Source: Octopus vulgaris (taxonomy: Eukaryota). Taken from it: 64,000 nt of DNA. The notes under the pieces were generated by a model. The model was not told where the DNA came from. It did no database searches and saw only the letters and a program-made list of their open reading frames with translations. The stretch is taken from the NCBI GenBank assembly GCA_951406725.2, contig OX597840.1, forward strand, positions 12,152,001-12,216,000. The letters are read 5' to 3'. The number at the start of each line of letters is the position of its first letter. Position 1 is the stretch's first letter. A program made the position numbers and the translations under genes. Positions 1-42,218 of the stretch are shown one piece after another.

Positions 1-246
1 GGCAAATATATTAACAGTGTACATTTGTTTGTTTGTTTAACATTATATTCACGAATTAAAGTTAATCAGTGGCAAAGGATCGAAACAAAAGCCCTTCTTT
101 TGGCGTCGATTCATAAACGGGTGCAACGGACAGCGATAAGGGGGTGGAGACGGACTTCCGGTTGACCATGCGCATGACGACTTCCGGGAACAAAAACAAA
201 CACCGGTTGTCAAGCAGTGCTTGGTAACCAACACAAACATTCACGG
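1..246 (-). promoter_or_regulatory. ZNF promoter module pointing out of the window (left arm of palindrome)
   Basis: Reverse complement of 509-754; CCGGAAGT at 154-161 and 180-187 (minus strand), CATGCGCATG at 167-176; CpG-rich. Confidence 0.65.
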
Positions 247-449
247 CCATGCTGGAGTCTTTTATTTGTTACAGTCATTTGACTGCGGCCATGCTGGAGT
301 ACTGCCTTTAGTCGAACGAATCGACCCAAGGACTTATTGTTTGTAAGCCCAGAGGTTCTTTTATCGGTCAATTTTTTCGAACCATCAAGTAAACACACCA
401 ACATCGGTTGTCAAGCGATGGTGAGGGACAGACACAAACACACAAGTAT

Positions 450-497
<48 letters not shown>

Positions 498-508
498 ATG
501 TTTCGTTT

Positions 509-878
509 CCGTGAATGTTTGTGTTGGTTACCAAGCACTGCTTGACAACCGGTGTTTGTTTGCGTTCCCGGAAGTCGTAGTGCGCATGGTCAACCGGAAG
601 TCAGTATCCACACCCTCATCGCTGTCCGTTGCACCCGTTTATGAATCGACGCCAAAAGAAGGGCTTTTGTTTCGATCCTTTGCCACTGATTAACTTTAAT
701 TCGTGAATATAATGTCAAACAAACAAACAAATGTACACTGTTAATATATTTGCCAATAGTAAGAAACTGGAGAGAGAAAGAGAGCCGAGCAGCGGACGGT
801 GTTTGGAGAAGCTGTGTGCCGTTGTCTTAGTCACGCCTTCTGGAAGAAATATACAGTGAGCTTCAAGTGATGGTAATG
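509..878 (+). promoter_or_regulatory. Putative promoter and non-coding exon 1 of A1
   Basis: CCGGAAGT (ETS-like) at 568 and 594 flanking TGCGCATG (NRF1-like); CpG-rich in an AT-rich background; candidate donor G|GTAATG at 873; one module upstream of each A gene. Confidence 0.65.
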
Positions 879-941
879 TAGGAATTGTTTTTACCTACCT
901 TATCACATAATGTTTCCGTATCTATAATTTGAATACATCTA

Positions 942-1643
942 CAGGGTGCTACGGGTAAGCTGTCGCAATTTTATGGTTTTTTATTTCGCTGATGGGCCTT
1001 GTTTTTGATTTTGTCTTCTCCACAATATGATAGGGGTCAGTTGGTCACCGTCTGTGTGGAAGAACAGGACCATGACGCAGTTGACTCTCCTAGAATTCTG
1101 GAAACGAAATGCTGTACCGGTTGGCGGCGACCTTTCGTTTTGACTCGAAAATATGTAAACAGTGAATTCGGTGATGTCCGTGACCACATATTGTCTTGTC
1201 AACTGTCAGTTACGAAGAGGAAGCTAATGGGTTGTGCGGGCATGGTTGTTCCTCTGTGTGTGTGTGTGTGTGTGTGCTTGTTCCTGTGTGTGTGTGTGGA
1301 CACTTAACTCCCCACACTGCAACCCCCTTGATTATTTTGTGTTGGGCACAGTTGAGTAAGAGACCGACAAAACTCCTTGTAACAATCAAAGATGAACTGA
1401 AGGCAACGATTTTGGCAGCATTCACCAACTTAAAGAAGGAGACAGTCCAGAAGAATTGCAGGGGATTCTGAAGTCATCTGGATTCCGTGGTGAAAGCCAC
1501 TGGCGATTTCATTGAATAATTTACTCTTTAGTATTTCAAGACATGTTTATGTAATTTTGGTAAATATATGTTAAAATGAGATGTCAGTGTTATTTTCATT
1601 TTTGTGTAATTTAGATGGCATTTTATTCACTGCACCCTCCCTG
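942..1643 (+). mobile_element. Tc1/mariner-superfamily deletion derivative (copies at 7397-8034 and, truncated, 13829-14130)
   Basis: TA|CAGGGTGC ... GCACCCTG|TA termini; SPHCNPLDYFV and KDELKATILAAF transposase C-terminal remnants. Confidence 0.75.
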
Positions 1644-2019
1644 TATATCGCTGTATCGACTGCAGCATTGGATGTTGTTATACACCGCTTGTTACAATGC
1701 GCTTTCTTCCACTGTTGTAGCTTTCGAATTATGCCACCCACCCTGTTGTCTGGGCAGGTGGGCAAGTTAGCATTCCCTCTGAACAGAAAGCTATTTTGTT
1801 GCTGGTTTATCCATTTTCAGATGAGTGAACTGGAGCAAAGTGAAAAGAAGTCTTTTGCTCATGAGCATTACACATCACCTGAACTATTGTCAAGTGGGAG
1901 ACAAATGGAAACACACATTTTATGTGGTTAAGTTTACAGGCTGCAACCATGCTGAGTCACCACCAGTATCATCACCTATTCAGTGAAAGGGTGAGTTTGA
2001 TATTGCAGCCCTTGTTTGT

Positions 2020-2300
2020 ATTGTATGTCATGATGTCAGTTCATCTGGGATCTTGGACTGCAGAAGTTCCAGGTGTTTCCCTAAAATATCTGCTGCTGCT
2101 ACTTCATGTAGATCTATAAGGTTTTTCTTGGCAAGATTTTTAATAACTTCGAATCCCGAGATATTGCTCTATCTGGTCCTTATTCTTCACAGGATGGGTG
2201 GGACCTTTGGAACTATGCAATGATGTCCTGTTTTGAGGATTGTATAACTCTTGATGCCAAAGTTTAGTGCCAGCCCTTCTAGGATTTTCCATACGTATTT
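2020..2300 (-). mobile_element. Old CR1-group LINE 3' ORF2 fragment in the intron of all five A genes (also ~8410-8700, 14750-15020, 25800-26110, 37640-37945)
   Basis: Best copy translates WKILEGLALNFGIK...SRIRTRY...GPQLLNILP...KIPDE. Confidence 0.65.
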
Positions 2301-3103
2301 TCCCACATTCCCATCTTTGCTCTACACACACACTGATATATGTATATGTATATATATATATCATCATCGTCATTTAACGTCCGCTTTCCATGCCGGCATG
2401 GGTTGGACGGTTCAACTGGGGTCTGGGGAGCCCGAAGGCTGCACCAGGCCAGTCAGATCTGGCAGTGTTTCTACAGCTGGATGCCCTTCCTAACGCCAAC
2501 CACTCCGAGAGTGTAGTGGGTGATTTTATGTGCCACCGACACAGGTGCCAATGCACACACACAGCTATTTGACACACTTCTTTAATTTTCCATCTATTAA
2601 ATCCACACACATGGCTTTGATTAGGTCAGTAAGGTCACATTCCAATGACTGAAACCTAGAATTCTCACTGTTTTTATCTCATCTTCTTAAGTATGCTATA
2701 TATCTTATTCCGTTTCTCTTTTTATTTCAGAACCTCAGATGACATTGACAGAGAGAATATTTCACTTTGGTATCCTGGAAGATAGTATTCAGAACAGATA
2801 GAACGGATGCATGGATTTACATAAATCTTTGAGGAATTCTATTGAAATTTCTTTTGTAAACAAATTTCTCAAACATCACTGTTTGGAATGAGTGCAAGAT
2901 TTTTGGATTCCAATTAAAGTTGAATGAATTTGCATCGACTTTAGATATCAACAAAGATCACTGCAGATGGAAATATAGGTGTTAAAACATTTGTGATTAA
3001 ACTATAAATACATCTATATATATATCTATAGTTTTGATAGAGGAGAAATTATTTAAAAATCTATTTGAGAAAGTGAAAGGACGGAGTTTAGTTTCCTCAA
3101 GAG

Positions 3104-3763
3104 ATGGCAGAAGGGACAGGGAAATCAACAGACAGTAGTGATATCTGTGAAAAGTCATCCTCTCAAAAATGTAACATCTTGACTCCCAAACGAATTCCCA
3201 AAGAAGCAAAGCTACATCGCTGTGTTAGTTGCGGTAAAACTTTCTCTGAAAATAGCTACTTAGTTACACACATACGTGTACATACAGGTGAGAAACCATA
3301 TCACTGTGATGTCTGTGGTAGATCATTCTCTGAAGGAAGTCACTTGACAACTCACAAACGTACACATACAGGAGAAAAACCATATCTTTGTGATATTTGT
3401 GGCAAAACGTTCTATCAAAAATGTCACTTGACCGAACACAAGCACTTTCATACAGGAGAGAAGCAATTTCAATGTGATGTCTGTGATAAATCATTTTTTC
3501 AAAAGAGTCACTTAACAGCACATAAGAACATCCATACAGGAGAGAAGCCATATCACTGTGATGTCTGTGGTAAATCTTTCTCAGAAGGAAGTACCTTAAC
3601 TAAACATAAACGTAGCCATTCAGGAATCAAACCTTTTAAATGTGATATCTGTGGTAAATCATTCTCTCGGAAAAGTAGCTTAAACGGTCACAAACTCATT
3701 CATACAGGAGACAATCCATATGATTGTGACACCTGTTGCAAATCATTATCTATTGTAACTTGA
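3104..3763 (+). CDS. C2H2 zinc-finger protein A1 (219 aa; 6 intact fingers, decayed N-terminal finger, frameshift-truncated 7th finger)
   Basis: Six CxxC-x12-HxxxH repeats with TGEKPY-type linkers; polypyrimidine-AG acceptor ending at 2730; AATAAA at 4068 and 4091. Confidence 0.9.
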
Positions 3764-3960
3764 CTGGACACAGGTGTATTCATCAATACTTAATGAATCA
3801 TATTTTGAAGGGAAGTACCTTGAAAAATCCACATGTAGACTCAGAGAGAAGAGAATATCATGAATGTAACCCTATCCATGGTAAAGTATTCTCTCAAAGC
3901 AGCCACTTAGCTACACCTGTATATATTTATACAGAAGATTAACCATATAATGTCAAAATT
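3764..3960 (+). pseudogene. Vestigial fingers in the A-family 3' UTR (also after A2, A3, A4, A5)
   Basis: Alternative frame reads [10 protein letters not shown] ... EYHECNPIHGKVFSQSSHLATPVYI(H/Y)TED.PY. Confidence 0.75.
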
Positions 3961-5169
3961 CTTTCCGTAAATCTCATGTTATATAACCATCGGTGTATTT
4001 GTTTGACAAAGAAGATATAGCAATCTTCAGACACTTTGTATAAACATATCTATGTCCACTTTAATGCAATAAATTATAACTGATATTTTTAATAAATCAT
4101 TCTTTCAGAATTTTCATATATATTCCTTCTAATGTATAGTCTGTGTGGTTGTGAAGCTTGCCTGCTAACCATGTGGTCTCAAGTTCAGTTCTACTGCACA
4201 GCACTTTGGGCTGACCAAAGTCTTGTGAGTGGATTTGGTAGACGGAAACTGGAAGAAGCTCGTCATATGTGAATGTGTGTGTGTTTGTGTGTACCGTCAC
4301 ACAAGCAGTGTTATTTACTTCCAAATGTCTGGTCATGAGGAAATATTATCTTACTTGGGAACAAGTGAGGGATGACAACAAGAAAGTCATAGTGCTGTAG
4401 AAAATCTTCATCGAAACCCCATCTCATCCTGCAAAGTCTATACTTTGCAGGATCAGGTGGATGTCAAAATGATGAACACACATGATTCCGTGTAATATAT
4501 TTTCAGAAGGGAAATTTTATTGCAGGTAAAAAGCTGAGAAATGTATTGCCACTGAAAAATGAGAACATCACTTTTTTAAAATGTAGTTTCCCCATCTGTA
4601 AGCATCAGGTGGTTATTTTGAGTCTAATGTTAAGAGTGTGTGTCCATATCCTCATGTGAGATGTACCCAAATTTCTAGAAGAGTGAGTTGAATTGCATAA
4701 AATCTAGAGGTTTCAGAGGAAAACTAACTTCAGATCTGAATTCAGCTTGCTCCATTAACGCATCTATATATTCCGTCTGTGTGGTTGTGAAGCTTGGTTG
4801 CTAACCATGGGGTCTCAAGATCAGTCACACTGCACAGCACTTTGGGCAAGGGGTTTCTTTTCTGGCCTGAGGCTTACCAAAGCCTTGAGTAAATTTGGTA
4901 GGTGGAAACTGCTATTAACACAACAAAAACATTGTTTCCTTGTGATAATCAGTTGAGATTAACTTAAAAACGAAAATAATGCACTGCTAACACTGAAGTA
5001 GGACACGATACGGACTTACAAACCCTCAATATTCTTAATAGTAAATTACGATTGCAAATCGAAATACGATATACCTACCAGCTATAGATATGTGTATGTA
5101 GGGGCAGTGTGGTCAGGAGCTTCCTTCCATGCATGTGTCAGGTTATTTGCTGTCTGGATTTTGTAAGAG

Positions 5170-6225
5170 TCGGATGTAGTTTTTTGTGTTGCTTAGAAGA
5201 TGTACTCAGACGTTGACGGGTCTGAGTTGTCAGAGGAGGAGCTGGTAAGGGCAGTCATAAAGATGGATGGCTTGTTGAAGACAAGGAGTTTTGCAGAAGC
5301 CACGGAGGTGAAGCGAAGGGAGCTGGACTTGGCTGGTCTGAAGGAGTATGAGAAGATGGCTCAGAAGGTGGGTGGCGACGTTAAGTTGTTGCTCCCCAAA
5401 GGAATTATGGGGAGGATGGAGAAGAAAATGAACACCCATAAGGTGTCCTCGAAAGGAAAAAAGGTGCTGAATGAACGGTCAAAGGAGACAATGTACATAA
5501 CGAAAAGAAGAACATATGGGACAATGGTCATCTAATTTAGTACAGTAGAAGAGGCGAGTACTTTGGAAGAAAGACTTCCAAGGTGAGGGTAGGAGCAATT
5601 CCATCGAATATAGAAGTGGCTTGGATAACAGAAGCTGTCCTAGTTGGAAGCGAGAAGGTGGCTGTCCTCCAAGCCACAAAAGCAGAAGGAAAGTGGAAAG
5701 GAAAGACATTGAACTCATTATTCAGATGGAAGAGGGTCACCTGGAGAACTTGGCAGAGATGGTGACGTTGGAGGAAATCGTGCTGAGGGCGTGGGTAGAG
5801 GGCAGAGTACCACGTTGTTTTAAATGTGGCCAAAAGGGTCACATTAGAGGATACAGTTGTGGAGACGGAAGAGAAAAGAGAGGAAGAATGGAAAGTTACA
5901 GAGAGCAGGAGGAGAAAGAGAAAAACAGAAAAAGCACTGAGTAAGATGCACCCTAGTCCATTCCATCCCACCCAAGACAACTCAGACCCCCACTACCCAT
6001 ATTGACACCAAATCCACCCACCCCATTTCCCACCACAAGAAAAAAAAAAGAACAGACACCACAAAATCTAGAAGACCCCACCCGCCGTCGGTGAAAATGG
6101 TTACGAATGCATAGTGGAGAGAATGATGTCACTAAGTGATGGAGAAAGGGGAAAAAGGAATTAGGACCCAGAGGCGGCGAGTGGTGTTACTCAGTGTGGG
6201 GTGAGGAGCAGACCCTTCATAATAT
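5170..6225 (+). mobile_element. Decayed retroelement gag/ORF1-like sequence (copy 1; zinc knuckle broken by a deletion)
   Basis: Purine-rich frameshifted ORFs; PRCFKCGQKGHIR. Confidence 0.6.
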
Positions 6226-6539
6226 CATTTTCAGATATTCATTGATGTTATCCTATTTTAATTTGTTTTTCATGTGTCATTCATTATATCATATTTTATA
6301 TTTATATTCTTAATTGTTATATGTTCCCACATGTGTTGTAGTGTCCCCCTCTGTGTAATGCCTTTAGGGCAATTTGAAAGAGATAAAGAAGCTTGCCTCC
6401 CAACTACATGGTTCTGGGTTGAGTTCATCTGAGTGCACCTTGGGCAAATGTCTTTTTTAGTCTCGGGTCGACAAAGCCTTGTGAGTGGATTTAGTAGACG
6501 CAAACTGAAAGAAGCATGCCGTATGTATGTATAGCGTAT

Positions 6540-6745
6540 GAGTAGCCATGCTTACATGTTTACTATCAACTTTTCATCTTAATTTATATTAGTAGCGGAA
6601 TTATAACACAGTAATTTCCCTTCATATAACGGTATTTTTTCATGGCGTTTTTCAGATGGCCAGATAACCGAAGAGATGGTGTTGTGGATTTCCACTTCGG
6701 CATCCGAAACTCAGAGTTTTATCTTGACTATTGAATAATTGTAAC
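6540..6745 (+). mobile_element. Penelope-like terminal fragment (related copy 43625-43870-; similar-class fragments ~12905-13075, 15105-15300, 33190-33560, 35525-35790)
   Basis: ccgaagag...ccgaaac motif, inverted short termini, insertion in (TA)n; class assigned by pattern only. Confidence 0.4.
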
Positions 6746-6805
<60 letters not shown>

Positions 6806-6969
6806 GTATATACTTGTGTGTTTGTGTCTGTCCCTCACCATCGCTTGACAACCGATGTTGGTGTGTTTACTTGATGGTTCGAAAAAATTGACCGATAAAA
6901 GAACCTCTGGGCTTACAAACAATAAGTCCTAGGGTCGATTCGTTCGACTAAAGAGGGTACTCCAGCATG

Positions 6970-7335
6970 GCCGTGAACGTTTGTGTTGGTTACCAAGCAC
7001 TGCTTGACAACTGGTGTTTGTTTGCGTTCCCGGAAGTCGTCATGCGCATGGTCAACCGGAAGTCCGTCTCCACCCCTTATCGCTGTCCGTTGCACCCGTT
7101 TATGAATCGACGCCAAAAGAAGGGCTTCTGTTTCGATCCTTTGCCACTGATTAACTTTAATTCGTGAATATAATGTTAAAGAAAGAAACAAATGTACACT
7201 GTTAATATATTTGCCAATAGTAAGAAACTGGAGAGAGAAAGAGAGCCGAGCAGCGGACGGTGTTTGGAGAAGCTGTGGGCCGTTGTCTTAGTCACGCCTT
7301 CTGGAAGAAATATATCAGTGAGTGATGGTAATGTA
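6970..7335 (+). promoter_or_regulatory. Putative promoter/exon 1 of A2
   Basis: CCGGAAGT at 7030 and 7056, CATGCGCATG at 7041. Confidence 0.65.
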
Positions 7336-8729
7336 GTAATTGTTTTTACCTACCTTATCACATAATGTGTCCGTATCTATAATTTGAATACATCTACAGG
7401 GTGCTACGGGTAAACTGTCGCAATTTTATGTTTTTTTTTTATTTCGCTGATGCTCCTTGTTTTTGATTTTGTCTTCTCCACAATATGATAGGGGTCAGTT
7501 GGTCACCGTTTGGAAACGACATGCAGTACCGGTTATCGGCGACCTTTCGTTTTGACTCGAAAATATGTAAACAATGAATTCGGTGGTGTCCGTGACCACA
7601 TATTGTCTTGTCAATTCTCAGTTGCGAAGAGGAAGCTAATGGGTTGTGCGGGCATGCTTGTTCCTCTGAGTTTGTGTGGACACAGCATCTGGACACTTGA
7701 CTCCCCACACTGCAACACCCATAATTATTTTGTGTTGGGCACAGTTGAGTAAGAGACCGACAAAACTCCTTGTAACAAGCAAAGATGAACTGAAGGCAAC
7801 GATTTTGGCAGCATTTACCAACTTAAAGAAGGAGACAGTCCAGAAGAATTGCAGGGGATTCTGAAGTCATCTGGATTCCGTGGTGAAAGCCACTGGCGAT
7901 TTCATTGAATAATTTACTCTTTAGTATTTCAAGACATGTTTATGTAATTTTGGTAAATATATCTGTTAAAATGAGATGTCAGTGTTATTTTTATTTTTGT
8001 GTAATTTAGATGGCATTTTATTCACTGCACCCTGTATTTCGCTGTATCGACTGCAGCATTGGATGTTGTTATACACCGCTTGTTACACTGCGCTTTCTTC
8101 CACTGTTGTAGCTTTCGAATTATGCCACCACCCTGTTGTCTGGGCAGGTGGGCAAGTTAGCATTCCCTCTGAACAGAAAGCTATTTTGTTGCTGGTTTAT
8201 CCATTTTCAGATGAGTGAACTGGAGCAAAGTGAAAAGAAGTCTTTTGCTCATGAGCATTACACATCACCTGAACTATTGTCAAGTGGGAGACAAATGGAA
8301 ACACACATTTTATGTGGTTAAGTTTACAGGCTGCAACCATGCTGAGTCACCACCAGTATCATCACCTATTCAGTGAAAGGGTGAGTTTGATATTGCAGCC
8401 CTTGTTTGTATTGTATGTCATGATGTCAGTTCATCTGGGATCTTGGACTGCAGAAGCTCAAGGTGTTTCCCTAAAATATCTGCTGCTGCAACATGTGGAT
8501 CTCTAAGATTTTTCTTGGCAAGATTTTTAATAACTGGGGTCTTCGAATCCCGAGATATTGCTCTATCTGGTCCTTATTCTTCACAGGATGGGTGGGACCT
8601 TTGGAACTATGCAATGATGTCCTGTTTTGAGGATTGTATAACTCTTGATGCCAAAGTTTAGTGCCAGCCCTTCTGGGATTTTCCATACGTATTTTCCCAC
8701 ATTCCCATCTTTGCTCTACACACACACTG

Positions 8730-8790
<61 letters not shown>

Positions 8791-9342
8791 CACACACACA
8801 GCTATTTGACACACTTCTTTAATTTTCCATCTATTAAATCCACTCACATGGCTTTGATTAGGTCAGCATGGCCACATTCCAATGACTGAAACCTAGAATT
8901 CTCACTGTTTTTATCTCATCTTCTTAAGTATGCTATATATCTTATTCCGTTTCTCTTTTATTTCAGAACGTCAGATGACATTGACAGAGAGAATATTTCA
9001 CTTTGGTATCCTGGAAGATAGTATTCAGAACAGACAGAACGGATGCATGGATTTACATAAATCTCTGAGGAATTCTATTGAAATTTCTTTTGTAAAAAAA
9101 ATTTTTCAAACATCACTGTTTGGAATGTGTGCAAGATTTTTGGATTCCTATTAAAGTTGAATGAATTTGCATCGTCATTAGATATCAACAAAGATCACTG
9201 CTGTTGGAAATATAGGTGTTAAAATATTTGTGTTTAAACTATAAATACAACTATATATATATATCTATATTTTTGATAGAGGAGAAATTATTTAAAAATC
9301 TATTTGAGAAAGTGAAAGGACGGAGTTTAGTTTCCTCAAGAG

Positions 9343-10002
9343 ATGGCAGAAGGGACAGGGAAATCAACAGACAGTAGTGATATCTGTGAAAAGTCATCCT
9401 CTCAAAAACCTAACATCTTGACTCCCAGACGAACTCCCAAAGTAGCAAAGCCACATCGCTGTGATATTTGTGATAAAACCTTTTCTGAAAATAGCTACTT
9501 AGTTAGACACATACGTGTACATACAGGTGAGAAACCATATCACTGTGATATCTGTGGTAAATCATACTCTGAAAGAGGTCACTTGACAACTCACAATCGT
9601 ACACATACAGGAGAAAAACCATATCTTTGTGATATTTGTGGCAAAACGTTCTATCAAAAATGTAACTTAACCGAACACAAGTACATTCATACGGGAGAGA
9701 AACCATTTCACTGTGATGTCTGTGATAAATCATTCTCTCGTAAAAGCCACTTGACCACTCATAAGAACATTCATACAGGAAAAAAGCCATATCACTGTGA
9801 TGTCTGTGGTAAATCTTTCTCGGAAGGAAGTACCTTAACTAAGCATAAGCGTCGCCATTCAGGAATCAAACCTTTTAAATGTGATATCTGTGGTAAATCA
9901 TTCTCTCGGAAAAGTAGCTTAAACGGTCACAAACTCATTCATACAGGAGACAATCCATATGATTGTGACACCTGTTGCAAATCATTATCTATTGTAACTT
10001 GA
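9343..10002 (+). CDS. C2H2 zinc-finger protein A2 (219 aa, 6 fingers), tandem paralogue of A1
   Basis: Same architecture as A1; acceptor ending at 8966; flanks near-identical to unit 1. Confidence 0.9.
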   Translation: MAEGTGKSTDSSDICEKSSSQKPNILTPRRTPKVAKPHRCDICDKTFSENSYLVRHIRVHTGEKPYHCDICGKSYSERGHLTTHNRTHTGEKPYLCDICGKTFYQKCNLTEHKYIHTGEKPFHCDVCDKSFSRKSHLTTHKNIHTGKKPYHCDVCGKSFSEGSTLTKHKRRHSGIKPFKCDICGKSFSRKSSLNGHKLIHTGDNPYDCDTCCKSLSIVT

Positions 10003-11359: not shown

Positions 11360-12350
11360 AGAGTCGGATGTAGTTTTTTGTGTTTAGATGTACTCAGACG
11401 TTGACGGGTCTGAGTTGTCAGAGGAGGAGCTGGACTTGGCTGGTCTGAAGGAGTATGAGAAAATGGCTCAGAAGGTGGGTGGCGACGTTAAGTTGTTGCT
11501 CCCCAAAGGAATTATGGGGAGGATGGAGAAGAAAATGAACACCCATAAGGTGTCCTCGAAAGGAAAAAAGGTGCTGAATGAACGGTCAAAGGAGATAATG
11601 TACATAACGAAAAGAAGAACATATGGGACAATGGTCATCTAATTTAGTACAGTAGAAGAGGCAAGTACTTTGGAAGAAAGACTTCCAAGGTGAGGGTAGG
11701 AGCAATTCCATCGAATATAGAAGTGGCTTGGATAACAGAAGCTGTCCTAGTTGGAAGCGAGAAGGTGGCTGTCCTCCAAACCACAAAAGCAGAAGGAAAG
11801 ACATTGAATTCATTATTCAGATGGAAGAGGGTCACCTGGAGAACTTGGCAGAGATGGTGACGTTGGAGGAAATCGTGCTGAGGGCGTGGGTAGAGGGCAG
11901 AGTACCACGTTGTTTTAAATGTGGCCAAAAGGGTCACATTAGAGCATACTGCCCACTACAGAGGACAATGTTTGAGGATACAGTTGTGGAGACGGAAGAG
12001 AAAAGAGAGGAAGAATGGAAAGTTACAGAGAGCAGAGCGAGAAAGAGAAAAACAGAAAAAACACTGAGTAAGATGCACCCTAGTCCATTCCATCCCACCC
12101 AAGACAACTCAGACCCCCACTACCCATATTGACACCAAATCCCCCCACCCATTTCCCCCCACAAGAAAAAAAGAAATAACAGACACCACAAAATTTAGAA
12201 GACCCCACCCGCCACCGGCGAAAAAGGTTACGAATGCATAGTGGAGAGAATGATGTCATTACATGATGGAGAAAGGGGAAAAAGGACTTAGGACCCAGAG
12301 GCGGCGAGTGGTGTTACTCAGTGTGGGGTGAGGAGCACACCCTTCATAAT
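11360..12350 (+). mobile_element. Decayed retroelement gag/ORF1-like sequence (copy 2; intact CCHC knuckle), probably L1/Tx1-type ORF1
   Basis: VWVEGR-like segment followed by CFKCGQKGHIRAYC (CX2CX4HX4C), then WKVT...RKRK. Confidence 0.62.
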
Positions 12351-15106: not shown

Positions 15107-15887
15107 TAGATCGTTAGCTCCTACACGCATTTTTTTCTCTCCTTGTTTTTTTTCTGTGTATCTTTCTGTCGAAGAGCGTGGGATCGAAACGTAAAAGACT
15201 TTTTCTATTTCTATTCCTGAGCGCTATACTAATACATTTGTTTGTTTGTACTCCACCTGCCTTCGTCTTTTGTTTATTTTCGTAAACTTTCCCGTTATAT
15301 ATATATATATATATACATACATACATCTACACACACACACACAGCTATTTCTCAGACGACAGGCTTCATTCAGTTTCCATCTATTAAATCCACTCACATG
15401 GCTTTGATTAGGTCAGCATGGTCACATTCCAATGACTGAAACCTAGAATCCTCACTGTTTTTATCTCATCTTCTTAAGTATGCTATATATCTTATTCCGT
15501 TTCTCTTTTATTTCAGAACCTCAGATGACATTTAAAAGTAGAGAATATTTCACTTCAGTATCCTGGAAGATAGTATTCAGAACAGACAGAACGGATGCAT
15601 GGATTTACATAAATCTTTGAGGAATTCTATTGAAATTTCTTTTGCAAACAAAATTTCTGAAAAGTCATTGTTTGGAATGTGTGCAAGATTTTTGGATTCC
15701 TATTAAAGTTGAATGAATTTGCAGCATCTTTAGATATCAACAAAGATCACTGCTGATGGAAATATAGGTGTTAAAATATGTATGATTAAACTCTAAGTAC
15801 AACTGTATATATATAGTTTTGATTGAGAAGAAATTATTTAAAAATTATGTGAGAAAGTGAAAGGACGGAGTTTAGTTTCCTGAAGAG

Positions 15888-16547
15888 ATGGCAGAAGGGA
15901 CAGGGAAATCAACAGACAGTAGTGATATCTGTGAAAAGTCATCCTCTCAAAAATGTAACATCTTGACTCCCAAACGAACTCCCAAAGAAGCAAAGCCACA
16001 TCACTGTGATATTTGTGGTAAAACCTTCTCTCAAAGGAATCTCTTAATTAGACACATACGTGTGCATACAGGTGAGAAACCATATCACTGTGATATCTGT
16101 GATAAATCATTCTCTGAAGGGAGTCACTTGACAGCTCACAAACGTACACATACAGGAGAAAAGCTATATCTTTGTGATATCTGTGGCAAAACATTCTATC
16201 AAAAATCTCACTTAACTGAACACAAGTACTTTCATACAGGAGAGAAGCCATTTCACTGTGATGTGTGTGATAAATCATTCTCTCGTAAAAGCCACTTGAC
16301 CACTCATAAGAACATTCATGCGGGACAAAAACCATATCACTGTGATGTCTGTGGTAAATCTTTCTCAGAAGGAAGTACCTTAACTAAACATAAACGTAGC
16401 CATTCAGGAATCAAACCATTTAAATGTGATATCTGTGGTAAATCATTCTCTCAGGTAGGTAGCTTAAACAGACACAAACTCATTCATACTGGAAACAATC
16501 CATATCATTGTGACACCTGTGGCAAATCATTGTCTGTTGTAACTTAA
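15888..16547 (+). CDS. C2H2 zinc-finger protein A3 (219 aa, 6 fingers)
   Basis: Same architecture; acceptor ending at 15516; homologous leader and 3' UTR. Confidence 0.9.
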   Translation: MAEGTGKSTDSSDICEKSSSQKCNILTPKRTPKEAKPHHCDICGKTFSQRNLLIRHIRVHTGEKPYHCDICDKSFSEGSHLTAHKRTHTGEKLYLCDICGKTFYQKSHLTEHKYFHTGEKPFHCDVCDKSFSRKSHLTTHKNIHAGQKPYHCDVCGKSFSEGSTLTKHKRSHSGIKPFKCDICGKSFSQVGSLNRHKLIHTGNNPYHCDTCGKSLSVVT

Positions 16548-21540: not shown

Positions 21541-21773
21541 CGCCAGAATGGCTTACACACACGTATTTATTTCTGTCATTAGACGGCGGTCATGCTGGAA
21601 CACCAGCTCGAAGTGTTTCTATCGAACGAACCAACCGCAAGACTTATTCTTTGTAAGCGTAGTAGTTATTCTATCGGTTAGTTTTTCCGAACCGCTAAGT
21701 TACGGGGACGTTAACACACCAACATGGGTTGTCAAGTGATGGTGTCTCTCTCTCACTCACACACACATATATA

Positions 21774-21804
<31 letters not shown>

Positions 21805-21912
21805 GGCGGGCTTCATTCAGTTTGTCTATTAAATCCACTCACAAGATATGAATATGCACATACACATACATGTGTGTGTATTATATATATATGTATGTAT
21901 GTGGGGACAGCC

Positions 21913-22380
21913 ATGTTTGAGAAATCTCGAGTTGCACATGAGAAAGTAAGGAGGGATGTCAGGAAGGGCATCGCTGTTACACTTCCAGAAGGGAAGGGTC
22001 TTCCTTTGATGCTGACATGCAATGTCTGTGCAAGACCCTGCCTCAGCAAAGCTGGACTCAAGAGTCATCTTCGTTTTCATAAAGCGAGACAGATGAGTGA
22101 CAACCTGGCCACTGGTGGTGGTGTTACACACCATACTAATCATATCTGTCAGGCATGTGGAAGAGAGTGTAATTCGGCAGGAGGACTTAAACGGCATGCA
22201 AAGGTACATGAAACCCAGTTACAACTACAGCCGGCTATTGCCAGTAAAGGTTTTAGCTGCCAATTCTGTACAAGAGATTGTAGATCTTTGGCTGGGCAAA
22301 AAAGTCACATTCGATCACAGCACCAGTAACAGTTAAGCTTCGTGCAATGGCCATACTCGATAACGAGGGGGCAGCCATAA
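21913..22380 (+). mobile_element. RTE-like LINE 3' end encoding three C2H2-like fingers (open 138-aa frame 21913-22329)
   Basis: FEKSR..EK.RR..RK followed by C..C.R.C.S..GL.SH.R.H motifs typical of RTE ORF C-termini. Confidence 0.7.
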
Positions 22381-24531: not shown

Positions 24532-25191
24532 TCAAGTTACAATAGATAATGATTTGCCACAGGTGTCACAATGATATGGATTGTCTCCCATATGAATGAG
24601 TTGGTGCCTGTTTAAGTGACTTGCTAAAGAGAATGATTTACCACAGATATCACATTTAAAAGGTTTGATTCCTGAATGGCTACGTTTATGTTTAGTTAAG
24701 GTACTTCCTTCTGAGAAAGATTTACCACAGACATCACAGTGATATGGCTTTTTTCCTGTATGAATGTTCTGATGTGCAGTCAAGTGGCTTTTTCTAGAAA
24801 ATGATTTATCACACACATCACAGTGAAATGGCTTCTCTCCTGTATGAAAGTACTTGTGTTCAGTTAAGTGACATTTTTGATAGAATGTTTTGCCACAAAT
24901 ATCACAGAGGTATGGTTTTTCTCCTGTATGTGTACGTTTGTGAGTTGTCAAGTGACTTCTTTCAGAGAATGATTTATCACAGACATCACAATGATATGGT
25001 TTCTCACCTGTATGCACGCGTTTGTGTCTAATTAAGAGATTATTTTGAGAAAAGATTTTACCGCAAACATCACAGTGATGAAGCTTTGCTTCTTTGGGAG
25101 TTCGTCTGGGAGTCAAGATGTTACGTTTTCGAGAAGATGACTTTTCACAGATATCACTACTGTCTGTTGATTTCCCTGTCTTTTCTGCCAT
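24532..25191 (-). CDS. C2H2 zinc-finger protein A4 (219 aa, 6 fingers), inverted copy
   Basis: Same architecture on minus strand; acceptor at 25574-25575; promoter module at ~27650-27940 on minus strand. Confidence 0.9.
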   Translation of the reverse strand: MAEKTGKSTDSSDICEKSSSRKRNILTPRRTPKEAKLHHCDVCGKIFSQNNLLIRHKRVHTGEKPYHCDVCDKSFSERSHLTTHKRTHTGEKPYLCDICGKTFYQKCHLTEHKYFHTGEKPFHCDVCDKSFSRKSHLTAHQNIHTGKKPYHCDVCGKSFSEGSTLTKHKRSHSGIKPFKCDICGKSFSLASHLNRHQLIHMGDNPYHCDTCGKSLSIVT

Positions 25192-26603
25192 CTCTTGAGG
25201 AAAATAAACTCAATCCTTTCACTTTCTCACATAATTTGTTTTTAAATAATTTAATAATTTCTCCTCTATCACAACTATATATATACAGTTGTACTTATAG
25301 TTTAATCATACATATTTTAACACCTATATTTCTAACAGCAGTGATCTTTGTTGATATCTAAAGATGCTGCAAATTCATTCAACTTTAATTAGAATCCAAA
25401 AATCTTGCACACATTCCAAACAATGACTTTTCAGAAATTTTGTTCACAAAAGAAATTTCAATAGAATTCCTCAAAGATTTCTGTAAATCCATGCATCCGT
25501 TCTATCTGTTCTGAATACTATCTTCCAGGATACTGGAGTGAAATATTCTCTCCTGTTAATGTCCTTTGAGGTTCTGAAATAAAAGAGAAATGGAATAAGA
25601 TATATAGCATACTTAAGAAGATGAGATAAAAACAGTGAGAATTCTAGGTTTCAGTCATTGGAATGTGGCCATGCTGACCTAATCAAAGCCATGTGAGTGG
25701 ATTTAATAGATGGAAACTGAATGAAGTCTGGCGTCTGAGAAATAGCTGTGTGTGTATGTATGTATGTATGTATTTATGTGTGTGAAGCAAAGATGGGAAT
25801 GTGGGAAAATATATATGGAAAATCCTAGAAGGGCTGGCACTAAACTTTGGCATCAAGAGTTGTACCAGCCCCCAAACAGGTCATCATTGCATTATTCCAA
25901 GGGTCCCACCCATCCTGTCAAGAATAAGGACCAGATACAGCAGTACCTTGGGATTTGAAGGCCCCCAGTTATTAAATATCTTGCCAAGAAAAACCTTAGA
26001 GAATTACATGCAATAGCTGCAGCAGATATTTTCAAGAAACACCTTGAGCTTCTGCAGTCCAAGATCCCAGATGAAGCTACATCAGGACAAGGAACACAAA
26101 CAAGGGTAGTAATCTCAAACTCACCCTTTCACTGAATAGGTGAGGATACTGGTGGTGACCCAGCATGGTTGTGTGTGTTTCTATTTGTCTCCCACTTGAC
26201 AATCGTTGTTGCTTTGTTTACATCACTGTAGCCTAGTGGTTCAGCAAACAAGGACCAAGAGAATAAGTACCAAGTTGATTTAGTTCTGTTAATCTTTTGC
26301 TTATCACTTCTTTGTCATTAGACTGCAGCCATGCTAGGGCACCACCTTCAATCTTTTTTTTTGGCTCGGGTCAAACACTATAGTTTAGAGGCCATGTTTT
26401 GACAATGTGAATTTTCCGAGGCCTCTCCCCCACCCTGTTCACGAGTGCGCGTTCTTTTTTTTGTTTTTTTCATATTCGTTTAGAGCAAGTTGTTTTACAC
26501 CTATTACACTATTTTTCCTTTGTTTCTTGGCGACTCGGAACATTCACGATGTGAATTTTCGGAGGCCTCTCAACCATGTTTCTTTTTTCATATTCCTTTA
26601 GAG

Positions 26604-29344: not shown

Positions 29345-32146
29345 CAGGTGTACGGTTCTTGGAAGCAAGGGATGTAAGGTTTCCCTTAAAAAATTATAGA
29401 AATAAAATTGAAACTATATTACTTATTTTTCATAAGATCATTCTAATGCTTTGTAAGATTAACATAAACCACATGACATGACAGACTTTTATTGTCGGAA
29501 TTAGCATGAGACAACAAGCAGCGGTAGTCGACGAAAAAAACCTGTACAAGGGAAGCAACACGGGCTGTTGCATCCCGTTCGGTGTAATATTTTAACAATT
29601 TTTTCCTAGTAAAAGCTGATAAGGATTAGTTTTAGAGGTTAATGATTTTAGATGCTAATAAGTACTTATACGCTTATATTACGTTTCTGTCAATTCGCGA
29701 TACCTATGATATATATATATAATCTTACTTTGTTAAGTAACGCATAGGAAAAAGGAAGCAAGTTGACATTCTGCTTCCGTCAGCAAAACGGTGAAAAGAT
29801 AACGCGTGTAGTTTCTGCGTTTATTCAACTAATATTTTATACTTTTCCAAATTACAGAACACCCTTAATATAAAATGGACGTGAAAAGGAATTGCGTATC
29901 AAGTCAGTGTAACTGCGTAATTGAAAGTTTGTTGAGTAACAAGTTTTCTTCGAGAACTTACGCTGAAAAAGTATGTACTGTTCAAAGGGGTAGACCAATG
30001 CCTGATGTTTCTTTAACGAGTAAAGCAAAAAATTGTATTCGAAAGTTTAGCAAAGTGCAATATGAGAAGACTAAGTGGTTAGCAGCTTGTTCTGGCTTCA
30101 ATAAATTTTACTGTTGGCCCTGCCTGTTATTTAACAACGAAAGAGGTACGTGGAATTCATATGGATTTTCTGATTTAAATAATTTGCATAAAGCCATTAA
30201 AAGACACGAGCTATCTTCTTCTCATTTAACATCAGTGATTAATTTAACAAGATTCGGAAAAACGCGTACTGATTTTTTATTAAACAGCCAACATCGAAAG
30301 AATATTGAGACTCATAATGAAAAAGTAAAGAAAAATAGGGAGATCTTAAGACGATTAATTGATGTAGTTTGTTTTTTAAGTGAGCAACAACTCGCATTCA
30401 GAGATCATGAAGAATCAGCTGATCCTGATAATGAGGGTAATTACGTTGAAATACTCCACCTCTGTAAGAAATACGATCCTATATTATCAAATTTGCAAGA
30501 GGCAGGCATTTTTTCTGACACTTCAAACAGATTTCAAAATGATTTAATAAATAGCGTGGCTGAAGTTCTTTTAGAAAAGATTAAATCGGAAATTAACGAT
30601 TCAACATTTGTGGCTATTATTTTAGATGAAGCGAGTGAAATTAGAACTGGAGCACAACTTTCATTTGTTGTAAGATATGTTTTAAGTGACGGTAATATTG
30701 CAGAAAGATTTTTAGGATTTTTAAACGTAGGTTCTGATCGTACAGCAAGTGGTTTGTCAAAGATTGTGTTCGATAAAATAGAAGAGTTAAAAATTGGTCA
30801 TAAGTTTGTGGCTCAAACTTATGATGGTGCAAGTGTGATGTCAAGCGAATTAAATGGTTTGCAAAAGAAAGTTAAAGAAAAGTATCCTAATGCTTTTTTT
30901 GTTCATTGTATGGCCCATAGATTAAATCTAGTTCTGTCTCAAGCGGCTGCAAATATTCAAGAATGCGATAAGTTTTTTTCACAGATAAAGTCTTTTTCGT
31001 TATTTTTTTGTAAGTTGACCAAACGCGTGCATCAATTCGATACTGAAATTAAAAGGCATTTTCCAAAAGTGGCGCCAACTGACTGGAACTTGAATCATTC
31101 GTTGGTAGAAACAGTACGTGAATATCATGAGAAACTTGCTGATTTATTCCTAAACATCATTGATAATTCAAGTAAATGGGATACAGAAAGCTATACCTAT
31201 GCTCAGGCGTTGTATTCTAATTTACAAAATTGTGAATTCAATTTTTTGTTAAATGTGTTTGGAGATATTTTTATTTGCACAAATACAGCATTTGACATCC
31301 TCCAGACAAAACCATTTGACGTATCCTACTGTGTTCATACAATAAATGAAATTGTGAAAGTTTTGAAAGAAAAAAAGCATGATTTTCCTAAATTTTGGGC
31401 TAACGTTGATGGCATTTATCCTCAAATAAAGAAAAGAAAAACTGCTTTTGAAACAGAAGAAGAAAGATACAGGCAGCTGTTCTACAAAATTATAGATTTA
31501 ATTTGCGAGCAAATTGAGATAAGATTTCAAAATTTAAATGAATTACATTTTTTAGCGCTTCTCGATCCAATGAGACAGAGTAACAACGTCCAGGAAACAT
31601 CTTTAACTTCCCTTAAACATTCCTATGAAGACTATTTCGACAGCCAAAAGTTAAGAAGCGAACTTACTGCTTTGTACAAAGATGCTGAACTGAAAGGAAA
31701 ATCCGTTCAAGATTTACTTTGCATTCTGCATAATAGTGGATTAGATGAAGCTTTGCCCCAGTTAACGAAGCTTTGTGAATTAATATTAACACTACCAACA
31801 AGTGCTACATTGGAGCGCTCTCTTTCATACCTAAGCAGAATTCATAATTATACAAGAAATTCGCAGGGACAAGAAAAGTCGAGCAGTTTAGCTCTAATTG
31901 GCATAGAAAAAGCCGTTTTAAAAAGCATTAAGAACGATAGCTTCTACAATGATGTTATCAACAATTTCAACAAGAAGCAGAGAAGGATTGAATTAATATT
32001 TAAATAAAATAGGTAAGTTTTAATTGTGATTTCGTTTATTTTGAAAATAGCTGTATAATATGAACATGTCAATTTGATTCAAAATATCTATGACAGAAAA
32101 TTTTGGTCATTGCTTCACCAGCCAGAAAGATTACCACACGCCCCTG
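29345..32146 (+). mobile_element. Probable extent of hAT element around the transposase ORF, with degenerate termini
   Basis: Left CAGGTGTACGGT vs right end reverse complement CAGGGGCGTGTGGT; subterminal GGAAGCA/TGCTTC motifs at ~29361, 29552, 29754-29778, 32111; 8-bp flanks (catataat / attataca) do not match. Confidence 0.55.
29875..32007 (+). CDS. hAT-family transposase-derived protein (ZMYM1-like/Tip100-type; TTF zinc finger, DUF4371-like region, RNaseH-like core, hATC dimerisation region), 710 aa
   Basis: WL...YCWPCLLF...HELSSSH; AFRDHEE; ILDEASE; QTYDGASVM; HCMAHRLNL; LTLPTSATLERSLS; uninterrupted ORF. Confidence 0.9.
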   Translation: MDVKRNCVSSQCNCVIESLLSNKFSSRTYAEKVCTVQRGRPMPDVSLTSKAKNCIRKFSKVQYEKTKWLAACSGFNKFYCWPCLLFNNERGTWNSYGFSDLNNLHKAIKRHELSSSHLTSVINLTRFGKTRTDFLLNSQHRKNIETHNEKVKKNREILRRLIDVVCFLSEQQLAFRDHEESADPDNEGNYVEILHLCKKYDPILSNLQEAGIFSDTSNRFQNDLINSVAEVLLEKIKSEINDSTFVAIILDEASEIRTGAQLSFVVRYVLSDGNIAERFLGFLNVGSDRTASGLSKIVFDKIEELKIGHKFVAQTYDGASVMSSELNGLQKKVKEKYPNAFFVHCMAHRLNLVLSQAAANIQECDKFFSQIKSFSLFFCKLTKRVHQFDTEIKRHFPKVAPTDWNLNHSLVETVREYHEKLADLFLNIIDNSSKWDTESYTYAQALYSNLQNCEFNFLLNVFGDIFICTNTAFDILQTKPFDVSYCVHTINEIVKVLKEKKHDFPKFWANVDGIYPQIKKRKTAFETEEERYRQLFYKIIDLICEQIEIRFQNLNELHFLALLDPMRQSNNVQETSLTSLKHSYEDYFDSQKLRSELTALYKDAELKGKSVQDLLCILHNSGLDEALPQLTKLCELILTLPTSATLERSLSYLSRIHNYTRNSQGQEKSSSLALIGIEKAVLKSIKNDSFYNDVINNFNKKQRRIELIFK

Positions 32147-39810: not shown

Positions 39811-40307
39811 TAAACCAGCCAAATATGTATAGGCTTTATGAGATATGTAGACTACAATCACTTAATTACATAAAGCAGTCTCCAATAGTCCAGCTAACTC
39901 TCTCCTATATCTTATTCTCTTTCTCTTTTATTCCAGAACATCAGATGACATTGGCAGGACAGAATATTTTTACTTCAGTATCCTGGAAGATAGCATACAG
40001 AACAGATGCATAGATGAGGAATTGCATTGAAATTTCTTTTGTAAACGAAATTCCTCAAAAGTCACTGTTTGGCTGTTTGGAATGTGTGCACGATTTTTGG
40101 GACATAATTAAAGTTGAATGAATTTGCAGCATCATTAGGTATCAACAAAGATCACTGCTGTTAGAAATATAGGTGTTAAAATATGTATGATTAAACTATA
40201 AATACAACTATATATATATATATATATATATATAGTTTTGATAGAGGAGAAATTATTTAAAAATCTATTTGAGAAAGTGAAAGGACGGAGTTTATTTTCC
40301 TCAAGCG

Positions 40308-40919
40308 ATGGCAGAAGTGACAGGGAAATCAACAGACAGTAGTGATATCTGTGAAAAGTCATCCTCTCAAAAATGTAACATCTTGACTCCCAAACGAACT
40401 CCCAAAGAAGCAAAGCTACATCACTGTGATGTTTGCGGTAAAATCTTTTCTCAAAGTAACTACTTAGTTACACACATACGTGTACATACAGGTGAGAAAC
40501 CATATCACTGTGATGTCTGTGGCAGATCATTCTCTGAAGGAAGTCATTTGACAACTCACAAACGTACACATACAGGAGAAAAACCATATCTTTGTGATAT
40601 TTGTGGCAAAACGTTCTATCAAAAATGTCACTTAAACGAACACAAGTACTTTCATACGGGAGAGAAGCCATTTCACTGTGATATCTGTGATAAATCATTC
40701 TCTCGAAAAAGCCACTTGACTTCACATCAGAACATTCATACAGGAGAGAAGCCATATCACTGTGATGTCTGTGGTAAATCTTTCACAGAAGGAAGTACCT
40801 TAAGTAAACATATACGTAGCCATTCAGGAATCAAACCTTTTAAATGTGATATCTGTGGTAAATCATTCTCTCGGACAAGTATCTTAAAAAATCACAAACT
40901 CATCCATACAGGAGATTAG
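40308..40919 (+). CDS. C2H2 zinc-finger protein A5 (203 aa, 6 fingers; earlier TAG removes the truncated 7th finger)
   Basis: Same architecture; GGAGATTAG replaces GGAGACAAT of paralogues; acceptor ending at 39936. Confidence 0.88.
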
Positions 40920-42218
40920 CCATATCACTGCAACACCTGCAGTAAATCATTATCTATTGTTACTTAAATGGACACAAGTGTATTTGATGCATCACATTCC
41001 GAAGGGAAGTCCCTTGAAAAATCCACATGTAGACTCAGAGAGAAGAGAATATCATGAATGTAACCCTATCCATAGTAAAGTATTCTCTCAAAGCAGCCAC
41101 TTAGCTACACCTGTATATATTCATACAGAAGATTTACCATATAATGTCAAAAATCTTTCCATAAATCTCATGTTATATAACCATCGGTGTATTTGTTTGA
41201 CAAAGAAGATATAGCAATCTTCGGACACTTTGTATAAACATATTTATGTCCACTTTAATGCAATAAATTATAACTGATATTTTTAATAAATCATTCTTTC
41301 AGAATCTTCATATATATTCCTTCTAATGTATAGTCTGTGTGGTTGTGAAGCTTGCTTGCTAACCATGTGGTCTCAAGTTCAGTCCCATTGTACAGTACAA
41401 GTGATTTTTTTGTTTTCTGGCCTCAGCCTGACCAAAGCTTTGTGAGTGGATTTGGTAGATGGAAACTGGAAGAATCTCATCATATATATCTGTGTGTGTT
41501 TGCATGTACCCTTGTCTCGATATTACCCTCACAGTTATTTCCAAATGTGTGGCCATGAGGAAATATTACCTTACTTGGGAATGACAACAAGAAAGTCATA
41601 CTGCTGTAGAAAATCTTCATCAAAACTCCATCTGATGCATGCAAAGTATAGAAAAATGGATGTTAAAATGATGAACAAACATGTTTCTGTGTAATATATT
41701 TTCAGAAGGGAAATTTTATTGCAGATAAAAAGCTGAGAAATGTATTGCCATTGAAAAATGAGAACATCACTTTTTAACATTTCAAACAATTGTACAAATC
41801 ACGAAAGAAAATATTTCATCATCATATAAGATATACATCTGTTATCTAATTGAGTTTCCCCTCCGTCTTATTTCTTGCATGTAACTCACATCTACTTGCC
41901 TTCATTCTATCCTCCCAGTACACATCAGAAGCAAGTTAAAAAGGTATAATTTCGTCTGGGTGGATTGTAATGATGTATTGAGGATCTGCTGTTGACAGAA
42001 AAAATGGTATATGAAGTGATTGTGATAGTTGATGTGGGACAGAATAATCAAGCTTAGACTGATCTTGATTAATTTGACGACAATATCTCTGCTTGTACCC
42101 TGCAGACTTGAGTGGCAGATGAACAGGGGCACCAATTTATCAAGGCCCTTTTGTAGATTTCCTTACAGTAATTATCTTAAATTTTAAACAATAATATTTA
42201 TTCCTCTAAGTGTAATGA

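Follow-up and report, generated by a model that had tools for sequence, protein, structure and literature searches.

A zinc-finger exon of probable mosaic ancestry in a young paralogue cluster of Octopus vulgaris

The role proposed for large C2H2 zinc-finger families that evolve fast is to keep pace with transposable elements or to rewire gene regulation, and the way in which a fresh duplicate gains a new binding specificity is central to this idea. New specificities can arise when segments already present in a repeat array or in paralogues are reshuffled: the PRDM9 minisatellite shuffles whole 84-nt fingers inside a single array, both in register and out of it, and the conversion of chicken immunoglobulin V genes is somatic, AID-dependent and fed by a dedicated bank of pseudogene donors. 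Here we analyze a pair of tandem C2H2 zinc-finger (ZNF) genes, A1 and A2, which open a 64,000-nt stretch of Octopus vulgaris DNA (C27:12152001-12216000, contig OX597840.1; hereafter the window) and whose finger-coding sequences differ far more than the DNA around them. Three published systems come closest. Short gene-conversion regions were detected with GENECONV in many sets of lineage-specific poly-zinc-finger (poly-ZF) paralogues (Emerson & Thomas 2009, PMC2604467). The primate L/M opsin genes have exons that are more diverged than their introns, with conversion homogenizing the introns and selection protecting the exons (Hiwatashi et al. 2011, PMC3213168). In the tandem KRTAP1 genes, a contrast between coding sequence and flanks was attributed to short-tract conversion combined with selection (bioRxiv 10.1101/282418).

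The octopus locus resembles each of these systems in part. The poly-ZF paralogues of PMC2604467 also form young tandem clusters, with short conversion regions in the finger exon and variation concentrated at the contact positions. Unlike them, the octopus genes show no KRAB, SCAN or BTB domain upstream, are very small (219 aa, 6.5 fingers) and have relatives that are at most 55% identical; moreover, exchange would here make a young pair less alike. The L/M opsins (PMC3213168) likewise present tandem paralogues with a coding block diverged beyond the adjacent noncoding DNA, at synonymous sites too, and with conflicting trees. In the opsins the direction of events is established, whereas in the octopus pair a single copy carries the excess, and import into that copy is the direction we favor. 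KRTAP1 (bioRxiv 10.1101/282418) shares the combination of short-tract conversion and selection, with separate histories for coding sequence and flanks, but the sign is opposite, since KRTAP1 coding sequences are homogenized and their flanks radiate.

We consider it probable that a block of ~445 nt in A1 (3170-3614) has a foreign ancestry, having entered an A2-like unit by non-allelic gene conversion from an older A5-like lineage. Under this scenario, A1 would have started as a young A2-like unit in a cluster of seven copies, and sequence of an older A5-like paralogue would have been written into its fingers 1-5, probably as several short tracts. Eight private changes in finger 4 would then go back either to later substitutions or to a donor that has been lost or that this assembly lacks. 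Which exchanged tracts persist would likely depend on selection for distinct binding specificity.

The assembly scanned comprises 2.8 Gb in 227 contigs. The first 13 kb of the window consist of two tandem units, A1 and A2, of ~6.3 kb each, with one 672-nt open frame per unit. A genome-wide search returned seven close copies of this frame, 90-100% identical and confined to 55 kb; any other ZNF match in the assembly is at most 77% identical to this family. Two of the copies, B2r and B1r, lie on the minus strand upstream of the window, and the others lie within it:
3092..3763, plus strand: A1 zinc-finger exon, 223 codons and a stop, with six full fingers at 3215-3718 and a truncated seventh
9331..10002, plus strand: A2 exon, next tandem unit at an offset of 6239, frame intact
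15876..16547, plus strand: A3 exon, paralogue, frame intact
24532..25203, minus strand: A4r exon, paralogue, frame intact
40296..40967, plus strand: A5 exon, paralogue and sister to the A1 core, with a TAG in the linker after finger 6

The frame encodes a small C2H2 protein whose six complete fingers are followed by a truncated seventh, and the finger number is constant in all seven copies. The A1 frame has the 28-residue C-X2-C-X12-H-X3-H units and TGEKP-like linkers of a C2H2 poly-zinc-finger protein and the corresponding Pfam matches (zf-H2C2_2 PF13465, E=2.2e-51, six stretches; zf-C2H2 PF00096, E=1.7e-28, five stretches). All Cys and His zinc ligands are kept in the six full units of 7/7 copies, and the frames are fully open in 6/7, A5 being the exception with its one in-frame TAG after finger 6. 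This stop (…HTGD*PY…) would cost A5 only the truncated seventh finger, the remaining frame being open. An ATG at 3104 is common to all seven copies and, judging from the sequence, the A1 coding sequence (CDS) likely runs from there to the stop at 3761-3763 (219 aa). In window 1-3100, which covers unit A1 only, none of the 33 plus-strand open reading frames (ORFs) of at least 30 aa matched Pfam at E<=0.01. No KRAB, SCAN, BTB or ZAD exon was seen upstream of A1, and short exons could escape such an ORF scan. In a protein search, named relatives, Octopus species among them, were at most 55% identical.

The exons of A1 and A2 were compared directly, without gaps, at the offset of 6239. Across the fingers (3181-3615 vs 9420-9854), 42 of 435 nt differ (9.7%), with 11 differences in the 60-nt bin 3500-3559 and 14 across finger 4 (3467-3550). 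The 5′ part of the exon (3092-3180) has two more, at 3170 and 3171, and the 3′ part (3616-3763) has none in 148 nt. Forty codons differ between the copies, 15 of them synonymously. In finger 2, every difference is non-synonymous. These counts agree with a sequence-only reading of the same DNA, which had estimated about 40 differences in ~435 nt, about 11 of them within 60 nt across finger 4, and had noted synonymous changes among them. With fingers 1-5 abbreviated as F1-F5, the pair divides as follows:
3170..3614, plus strand: divergent core of A1, comprising the end of the N-terminal linker and fingers 1-5, with all 44 A1-A2 exon differences
9409..9853, plus strand: counterpart of the core in A2, whose F1-F5 differ from B1r at 16/420 and from B2r at 23/420, the level of the flanks
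3615..3791, plus strand: finger 6, truncated finger 7, stop and 28 nt, a total of 177 nt identical between A1 and A2
1738..2066 (= 8128-8456), plus strand: longest exact run between A1 and A2, 329 nt, noncoding, upstream of the exon

The finger-6 helix of the tail shared by A1 and A2 is found in no other copy. The sequence-only reading had described the rest of the CDS and the upstream stretch 1741-2060 vs 8131-8450 as looking identical. This holds for the 3′ part of the exon and for that stretch (0/320 differ); the remainder of the unit is not identical. With the exon removed, 150 of 5071 BLAST-aligned columns are mismatched (3.0%, four high-scoring segment pairs), so that the finger block exceeds its noncoding background ~3.3-fold (binomial P=3.8e-11). 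A global MAFFT alignment of the units, which includes gappy and poorly aligned ends, gives 5.9% (354/6006). The 320 identical nucleotides lie within the 329-nt run, whose length is only mildly out of the ordinary for a divergence of 3% (P about 0.009); their description as an intron draws no support from the upstream Pfam scan, and the CDS could start at 3104. Divergence is not uniform along the unit, with 9.7% in the core against a background of 3.0%.

The excess extends to silent sites. Nei-Gojobori estimates between A1 and A2 over fingers 1-6 give a synonymous divergence (dS) of 0.20 and a non-synonymous divergence (dN) of 0.052 (dN/dS 0.26), compared to ~0.03 in the flanks. Third codon positions differ at 20/168 sites vs 25/704 in the immediate flanks (Fisher P=6e-5); at four-fold sites alone, the difference from the flanks is not significant (4/51, P=0.13). 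Five contact-residue differences separate A1 from A2, across four fingers. We rejected the idea that positive selection acting at contact residues is by itself the cause, because only 5 of the 20 finger amino-acid differences fall at positions -1, 2, 3 and 6 vs 2.9 expected (P=0.15): selection on point mutations at specificity residues fails to account for this pair. The earlier judgment that point mutation under selection is insufficient by itself therefore stands on the silent divergence, on the distribution of contact residues and on the differing genealogy of the core described below.

The anomaly can be assigned to one copy. The units of A1, A2, B1r and B2r are alignable over more than 3.4 kb, and all six pairs are ~3% apart over about 2650-5320. 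Over columns 3457-3556, A1 is 16, 16 and 17 sites away from A2, B1r and B2r, which among themselves differ at 1, 4 and 3. With sites where B1r=B2r as the reference, the core (3170-3634) carries 32 A1-only vs 4 A2-only changes, and the flanks (2651-5324) carry 24 and 21, respectively (core vs flanks, Fisher P=0.0006); the A1 change rate is 7.4% in the core vs 1.2% in its flanks. The F1-F5 distances of A2-B1r (16/420) and B1r-B2r (15/420) equal those of their flanks. Since fingers 1-5 of A2 stand at flank-level distance from B1r and the excess is A1-only, the finger anomaly is a property of A1. Among the 44 exon differences, 15 are private to A1 (7 of them synonymous) and 5 to A2. Unusual replacements in A1 comprise a linker change from TGEKP to TGEKQ and positions -1 and +6 of finger 4. 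The densest group of private changes is the following:
3472..3532, plus strand: tract in finger 4 of A1 with 8 changes that all other paralogues lack (5 synonymous)

Over the finger-4 helix (equivalent of 3491-3532), A2, A3 and B1r are identical (0/42), and A3 is otherwise 7.6-9.3% off over F1-F5. This hints at a homogenizing exchange exactly where A1 is unique.

For 24 of the 44 positions at which the A1 and A2 exons differ, each of the two states recurs in other copies: the A1 state is mostly common to A3, A4r and A5, and the A2 state to B1r and B2r. The non-synonymous states at 3311, 3321, 3327 and 3335 in finger 2 are linked, with A1 carrying exactly the A5 haplotype and A2 the B1r/B2r haplotype. 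We built maximum-likelihood trees of three adjacent segments across the seven copies and compared topologies with approximately unbiased (AU) tests. The upstream tree (2692-3169) joins A1 to A2 (support 92/96). The core tree (3170-3634) joins A1 to A5 (87/91) and groups A2, B1r and B2r (93/98), with (A1,A2) rejected (AU p=0.0165). The tree of the tail and downstream sequence (3635-4323) returns to (A1,A2) with support 98/97; here both (A1,A5) and (A2,B1r,B2r) are rejected (AU p=0.0011 and p=0.0037, respectively). A5, the sister of A1 in the core, sits 37 kb from A1. The pairwise homoplasy index (PHI) is significant for the exon (p=0.0004). Among its 1711 pairs of informative sites, 848 prove incompatible, and the Hudson-Kaplan minimum number of recombination events (Rm) is 21. 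Two marks of interlocus conversion were thus found, conflicting genealogies in adjacent segments, with boundaries set post hoc, and a significant recombination signal by PHI.

The A1 core is not of one piece. By windowed distances, the nearest copy to A1 is A2 at 3218-3280 and A5 at 3260-3450 and 3533-3574; A1 is identical to both A3 and A4r over 3554-3637 and to A2 over 3638-3763, and it is distant from all copies over 3470-3532. Painting A1 with a Viterbi copying model yielded the succession B2r, A2, A5 (3115-3547), A3 (3548-3614, 0/67), A2 (3615-3764, 0/150) and B1r. A2 was painted as A1, B1r, A1, B1r (3305-3610, 6/306), A1, A3 and A1. Two sub-tracts of A1 have near-identical counterparts:
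3256..3425, plus strand: end of finger 1, finger 2 and start of finger 3, with 2/170 differences between A1 and A5 vs 8-12% in their flanks
3548..3614, plus strand: finger 5, equal to A3 (0/67) and, over 3554-3637, to A4r, with A2 carrying B1r-type states

From the sequence comparisons, the first of these is the strongest candidate for a tract recently exchanged between A1 and A5. Together, the tree conflict, the PHI signal and the shared states support exchange between paralogues as the apparent origin of the mosaic. We infer that gene conversion, and not double unequal crossing-over, was the source, and that it acted by import into A1 and not by overwriting of the A1 flanks.

It is also conceivable that no exchange took place and that the A1 fingers evolved fast by point substitution after the recent duplication, under positive selection, relaxed constraint or a mutation cluster. 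This explanation draws on the changes that are A1's own: of the 44 differences, 15 occur in A1 alone, and 8 of these crowd into 61 nt of finger 4 for which no donor was found; the private rate in A1 exceeds the flank-private 1.2% (P=7e-7). The unusual replacements (the TGEKQ linker and finger-4 positions -1 and +6) and the purely non-synonymous finger 2 point the same way. Seven of the 15 private changes are synonymous, however, dN/dS is 0.26, and the frame and all zinc ligands are intact. Furthermore, the core tree joins A1 to A5 with (A1,A2) rejected, and the four linked finger-2 states reproduce the A5 haplotype. We consider a history of this type quite improbable.

Several results weigh against a foreign origin of the block. 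A5 is a poor donor for the block as a whole, with 30/433 mismatches at 3115-3547, and A1 and A5 differ at 32/420 sites over F1-F5, above the ~3% divergence of the A1-A2 flanks. The segment boundaries of the trees were chosen post hoc, which inflates their support values. In a GENECONV-like permutation test over the 21 pairs, no imported tract survives correction: the only fragment to survive Bonferroni (0.002) is the A1=A2 tail at 3634-3762, A2-B1r at 3479-3613 is nominal only (0.0065) and the 19 other pairs are weaker. Both A1-A5 differences in the 3256-3425 tract are synonymous, and the similarity there may therefore partly reflect shared protein constraint. Searches of the 2.8 Gb assembly turned up no donor for the finger-4 tract 3472-3532. 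Finally, A1 has 12 private changes in F1-F5, on par with 11 in the old copy A3, which would fit equally well an old A1 core with overwritten flanks.

The last point belongs to the reverse scenario, which we regard as unlikely yet deserving of serious weight. Here, fingers 1-5 of A1 would be original and old, and the flanks, the 5′ end of the exon and fingers 6-7 would have been homogenized with their neighbors by repeated conversion or unequal crossing-over, while selection for distinct specificity kept the finger block together with its linked silent sites. Besides the private counts, it gains from family-wide silent divergence in the fingers at about twice the flank level and from A5 and A4r, whose downstream flanks differ by 4% and whose fingers have a dS of 0.22. 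Mosaicism of the flanks is evident (downstream PHI p=0.0003; B1r=A4r over 206 nt), contact residues are the most variable positions and the L/M opsins (PMC3213168) offer a precedent. On the other side, multi-kb overwriting (at least 2.5 kb per side, at ~3%) would be needed around a 445-nt island, which is less parsimonious than import. A2, B1r and B2r lack raised finger divergence, which argues that protection of the fingers is not general. In addition, an A2-type segment with the finger-1 helix (3218-3280) lies inside the A1 block, so that short tracts would be required anyway.

The import of A5-like sequence into A1 was pursued by searching for donors. Near-identical donors exist by sub-tract, A5 for 3256-3425 and A3 for 3548-3614, and the whole block is approached by A5 only, at 30/433. 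A single recent A5-to-A1 event was excluded, because the A1-A5 divergence over F1-F5 exceeds the age of the A1/A2 pair. A BLAST search of the genome with 71 nt of finger 4 gave A5 as the best non-self match, at 86%, among the 40 of 130 candidates that were scored. A 33-nt finger-4 pattern with up to 3 mismatches (<=3) matched only itself in the whole genome. A 24-nt pattern with <=2 mismatches had one match, which lies on another contig, and the reversed-pattern control had one as well; the former was discarded as a donor, since its surroundings are not zinc finger (88/270 identity). Exact 12-16-mers spanning at least 2 private sites gave chance matches only against 177 kb of local sequence and other ZNF loci, and a lone 14-mer match at window 55324 was rejected because it is not a finger. 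Out-of-register donors within the gene, compared by eye, were no better than the in-register paralogues. The private changes of finger 4 could reflect a donor that was lost or is absent from this haplotype, a cluster of mutations or old private divergence.

These searches bear on the central proposal of the sequence-only reading, namely that short-tract conversion imports finger segments from other paralogues and that exact donors of the divergent tracts could be found in the genome. Conversion between paralogues is borne out by the tree conflict, by PHI and by the 24 of 44 shared states; the exact donor is missing, and the reverse direction explains the same pattern. Donors of sub-tracts were recovered (A5 2/170, A3 0/67), and none was recovered for finger 4 or for the whole block. 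Import of the finger-4 tract, the most striking case of that reading, was not upheld, none of these searches of the assembly having turned up a donor.

We also considered whether the pattern is an artifact, with A1 and A2 being alleles or haplotigs set in tandem, or with their identical stretches collapsed or polished. Tandem units of 6.3 kb at ~97% identity are hard to assemble. The A1 region was compared with contigs from four sequencing runs of four studies, in which rare variants would be missed. The A1 fingers were matched without difference at 3165-3285 in all four runs, at 3466-3559 in two and at 3556-3667 in three, and the contigs over 3466-3559 span the private finger-4 tract. No variant letters are listed inside the A1 exon across the four runs. 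Since independent runs carry it exactly, the A1 finger sequence is not an assembly artifact. At all nine listed variant places in the A1 flanks, the same runs carry the homologous A2/B2r letter, as expected if the paralogues coexist in the samples. Moreover, A1, A2, B1r and B2r, in two orientations, are about equally distant, which alleles would not be, and many indels separate the units. The contig check is confined to A1 and its flanks, and A1 letters at 3928-3967 are unseen in three of the four runs; on balance, we regard an artifact as very improbable.

The A1 letters missing from three of the four runs are those at 3928, 3941, 3959 and 3967, where A2/B2r-type letters are present instead; one run has the A1 letter at 3928. 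This pattern could be a polymorphism of the A1 flank between individuals or a rarer version lost in the contigs.

Exchange within the family is not confined to the fingers. PHI on a seven-way regional alignment is significant for the exon (p=0.0013) and for the downstream flank (p=0.0003), and it gives p=0.08 for the upstream flank. Rm per kb is 35 in the exon and 11 in the flanks, and per biallelic informative site it is 0.43 and 0.35. Painting finds all seven copies mosaic, with switches in exon and flanks alike; the flank of A2 at 3818-4124, for example, is nearest to A3. B1r equals A4r over 206 nt of the downstream flank (equivalent of 3839-4044), and the two are otherwise 6-7% apart. In the noncoding patch 5250-6000, A1 and A2 differ by 1.3% (9 mismatches) and A1 differs from B1r/B2r by ~8-9% (58-67 mismatches). 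The match of A1 changes to old-type states (18/32 vs 1.25 expected, P=1e-17) was discarded as finger-specific evidence, given that a comparable fraction, 38-58%, matches in the flanks of A2, B1r and B2r. Such matching is pervasive sharing and not finger targeting; what sets the A1 core apart is its rate of change. Because the flanks are also mosaic and carry a recombination signal, exchange is not finger-specific, and the earlier idea that diversification is aimed at the DNA-binding array was not sustained: the flanks are equally mosaic with a significant PHI, and the patch 5250-6000 has a similar contrast. The 206-nt identity of B1r and A4r is in its own right a clean candidate conversion tract in noncoding DNA.

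Across the 21 pairs, mean divergence is 0.124 at four-fold sites, 0.125 at third positions and 0.059 in the flanks, so the fingers stand at about twice the flank level family-wide, and in single pairs the silent-site excess reaches up to four times the flank. Between A5 and A4r, for instance, the downstream flank differs by 4% and finger dS is 0.22. Contact positions are variable at 15/24 sites vs 35/144 of the other finger positions (P=0.0004). Selection for distinct binding specificity likely decides which tracts persist, because amino-acid variation is concentrated on the DNA-contact positions.

A more far-reaching interpretation would make the finger exon a favored target of templated diversification, where short tracts from partly lost or copy-number-variable paralogues enter young duplicates. 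We consider this quite improbable. If it were true, a new copy would gain its DNA-binding array far faster than by point mutation, and the cluster of eight changes in finger 4 would have been left by a donor present in other haplotypes only. The hallmarks of dedicated templated diversification, namely a silent donor bank, one acceptor and variation between cells or individuals, were not found here. There is no pseudogene bank among the seven copies, as 6/7 frames are open and A5 has one late TAG. The locus shares with PRDM9 and chicken immunoglobulin V genes the making of new specificities by shuffling existing segments. It differs from PRDM9 in its fixed finger number (6.5 in 7/7 copies), and from immunoglobulin conversion in that the A1 exon is without variant letters across four runs.

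Interlocus gene conversion among poly-ZF paralogues is a known process, already documented in vertebrates, and the present case adds a new cluster to it. A1 and A2 provide a clean and small example: a recent pair, five contact-residue differences and a 445-nt block with a different history. Estimates of dN/dS or dating on such ZNF families mislead unless recombination between paralogues is modelled. The terms "conversion" and "recombination" do not occur in one paper on cephalopod C2H2 genes that was searched for them (PMC12513265), and a narrow literature search found no titles or abstracts on conversion of cephalopod ZNF genes, which is not proof of absence. Interlocus conversion among C2H2 paralogues may therefore be undescribed in cephalopods.

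The window contains other elements around the cluster. Gag-like frames with a CCHC zinc knuckle (weak PF00098 match, E=0.0025) lie at 5549-5944 and 11656-12132 on the plus strand; they appear to be a retroelement remnant that was duplicated together with the ZNF gene in the A1 and A2 units, and over this part A1 differs from A2 by 1.3% and from B1r and B2r by ~8-9%. Between the ZNF copies, a 712-aa frame (29869-32007, plus strand) matches DUF4371 (E=1e-15) and, weakly, a hAT dimerization domain, and it resembles a hAT-type transposase or a domesticated relative. A larger C2H2 gene on the minus strand (48805-50217; 470-aa frame, 15 fingers by Pfam) is ~70% identical to the A-family fingers and falls outside the seven-copy family. 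A 204-aa frame at 21715-22329 (plus strand) has atypical C-X2-C…H-X3/4-H-like motifs in its C-terminal half, preceded by microsatellite-derived sequence. Finally, an inverted repeat marks the unit boundaries (1-493 vs 6766-7215, 88.6% identity over 493 nt), and the opposite strand of B1r and B2r makes the cluster partly palindromic, with B1r and A1 head-to-head.

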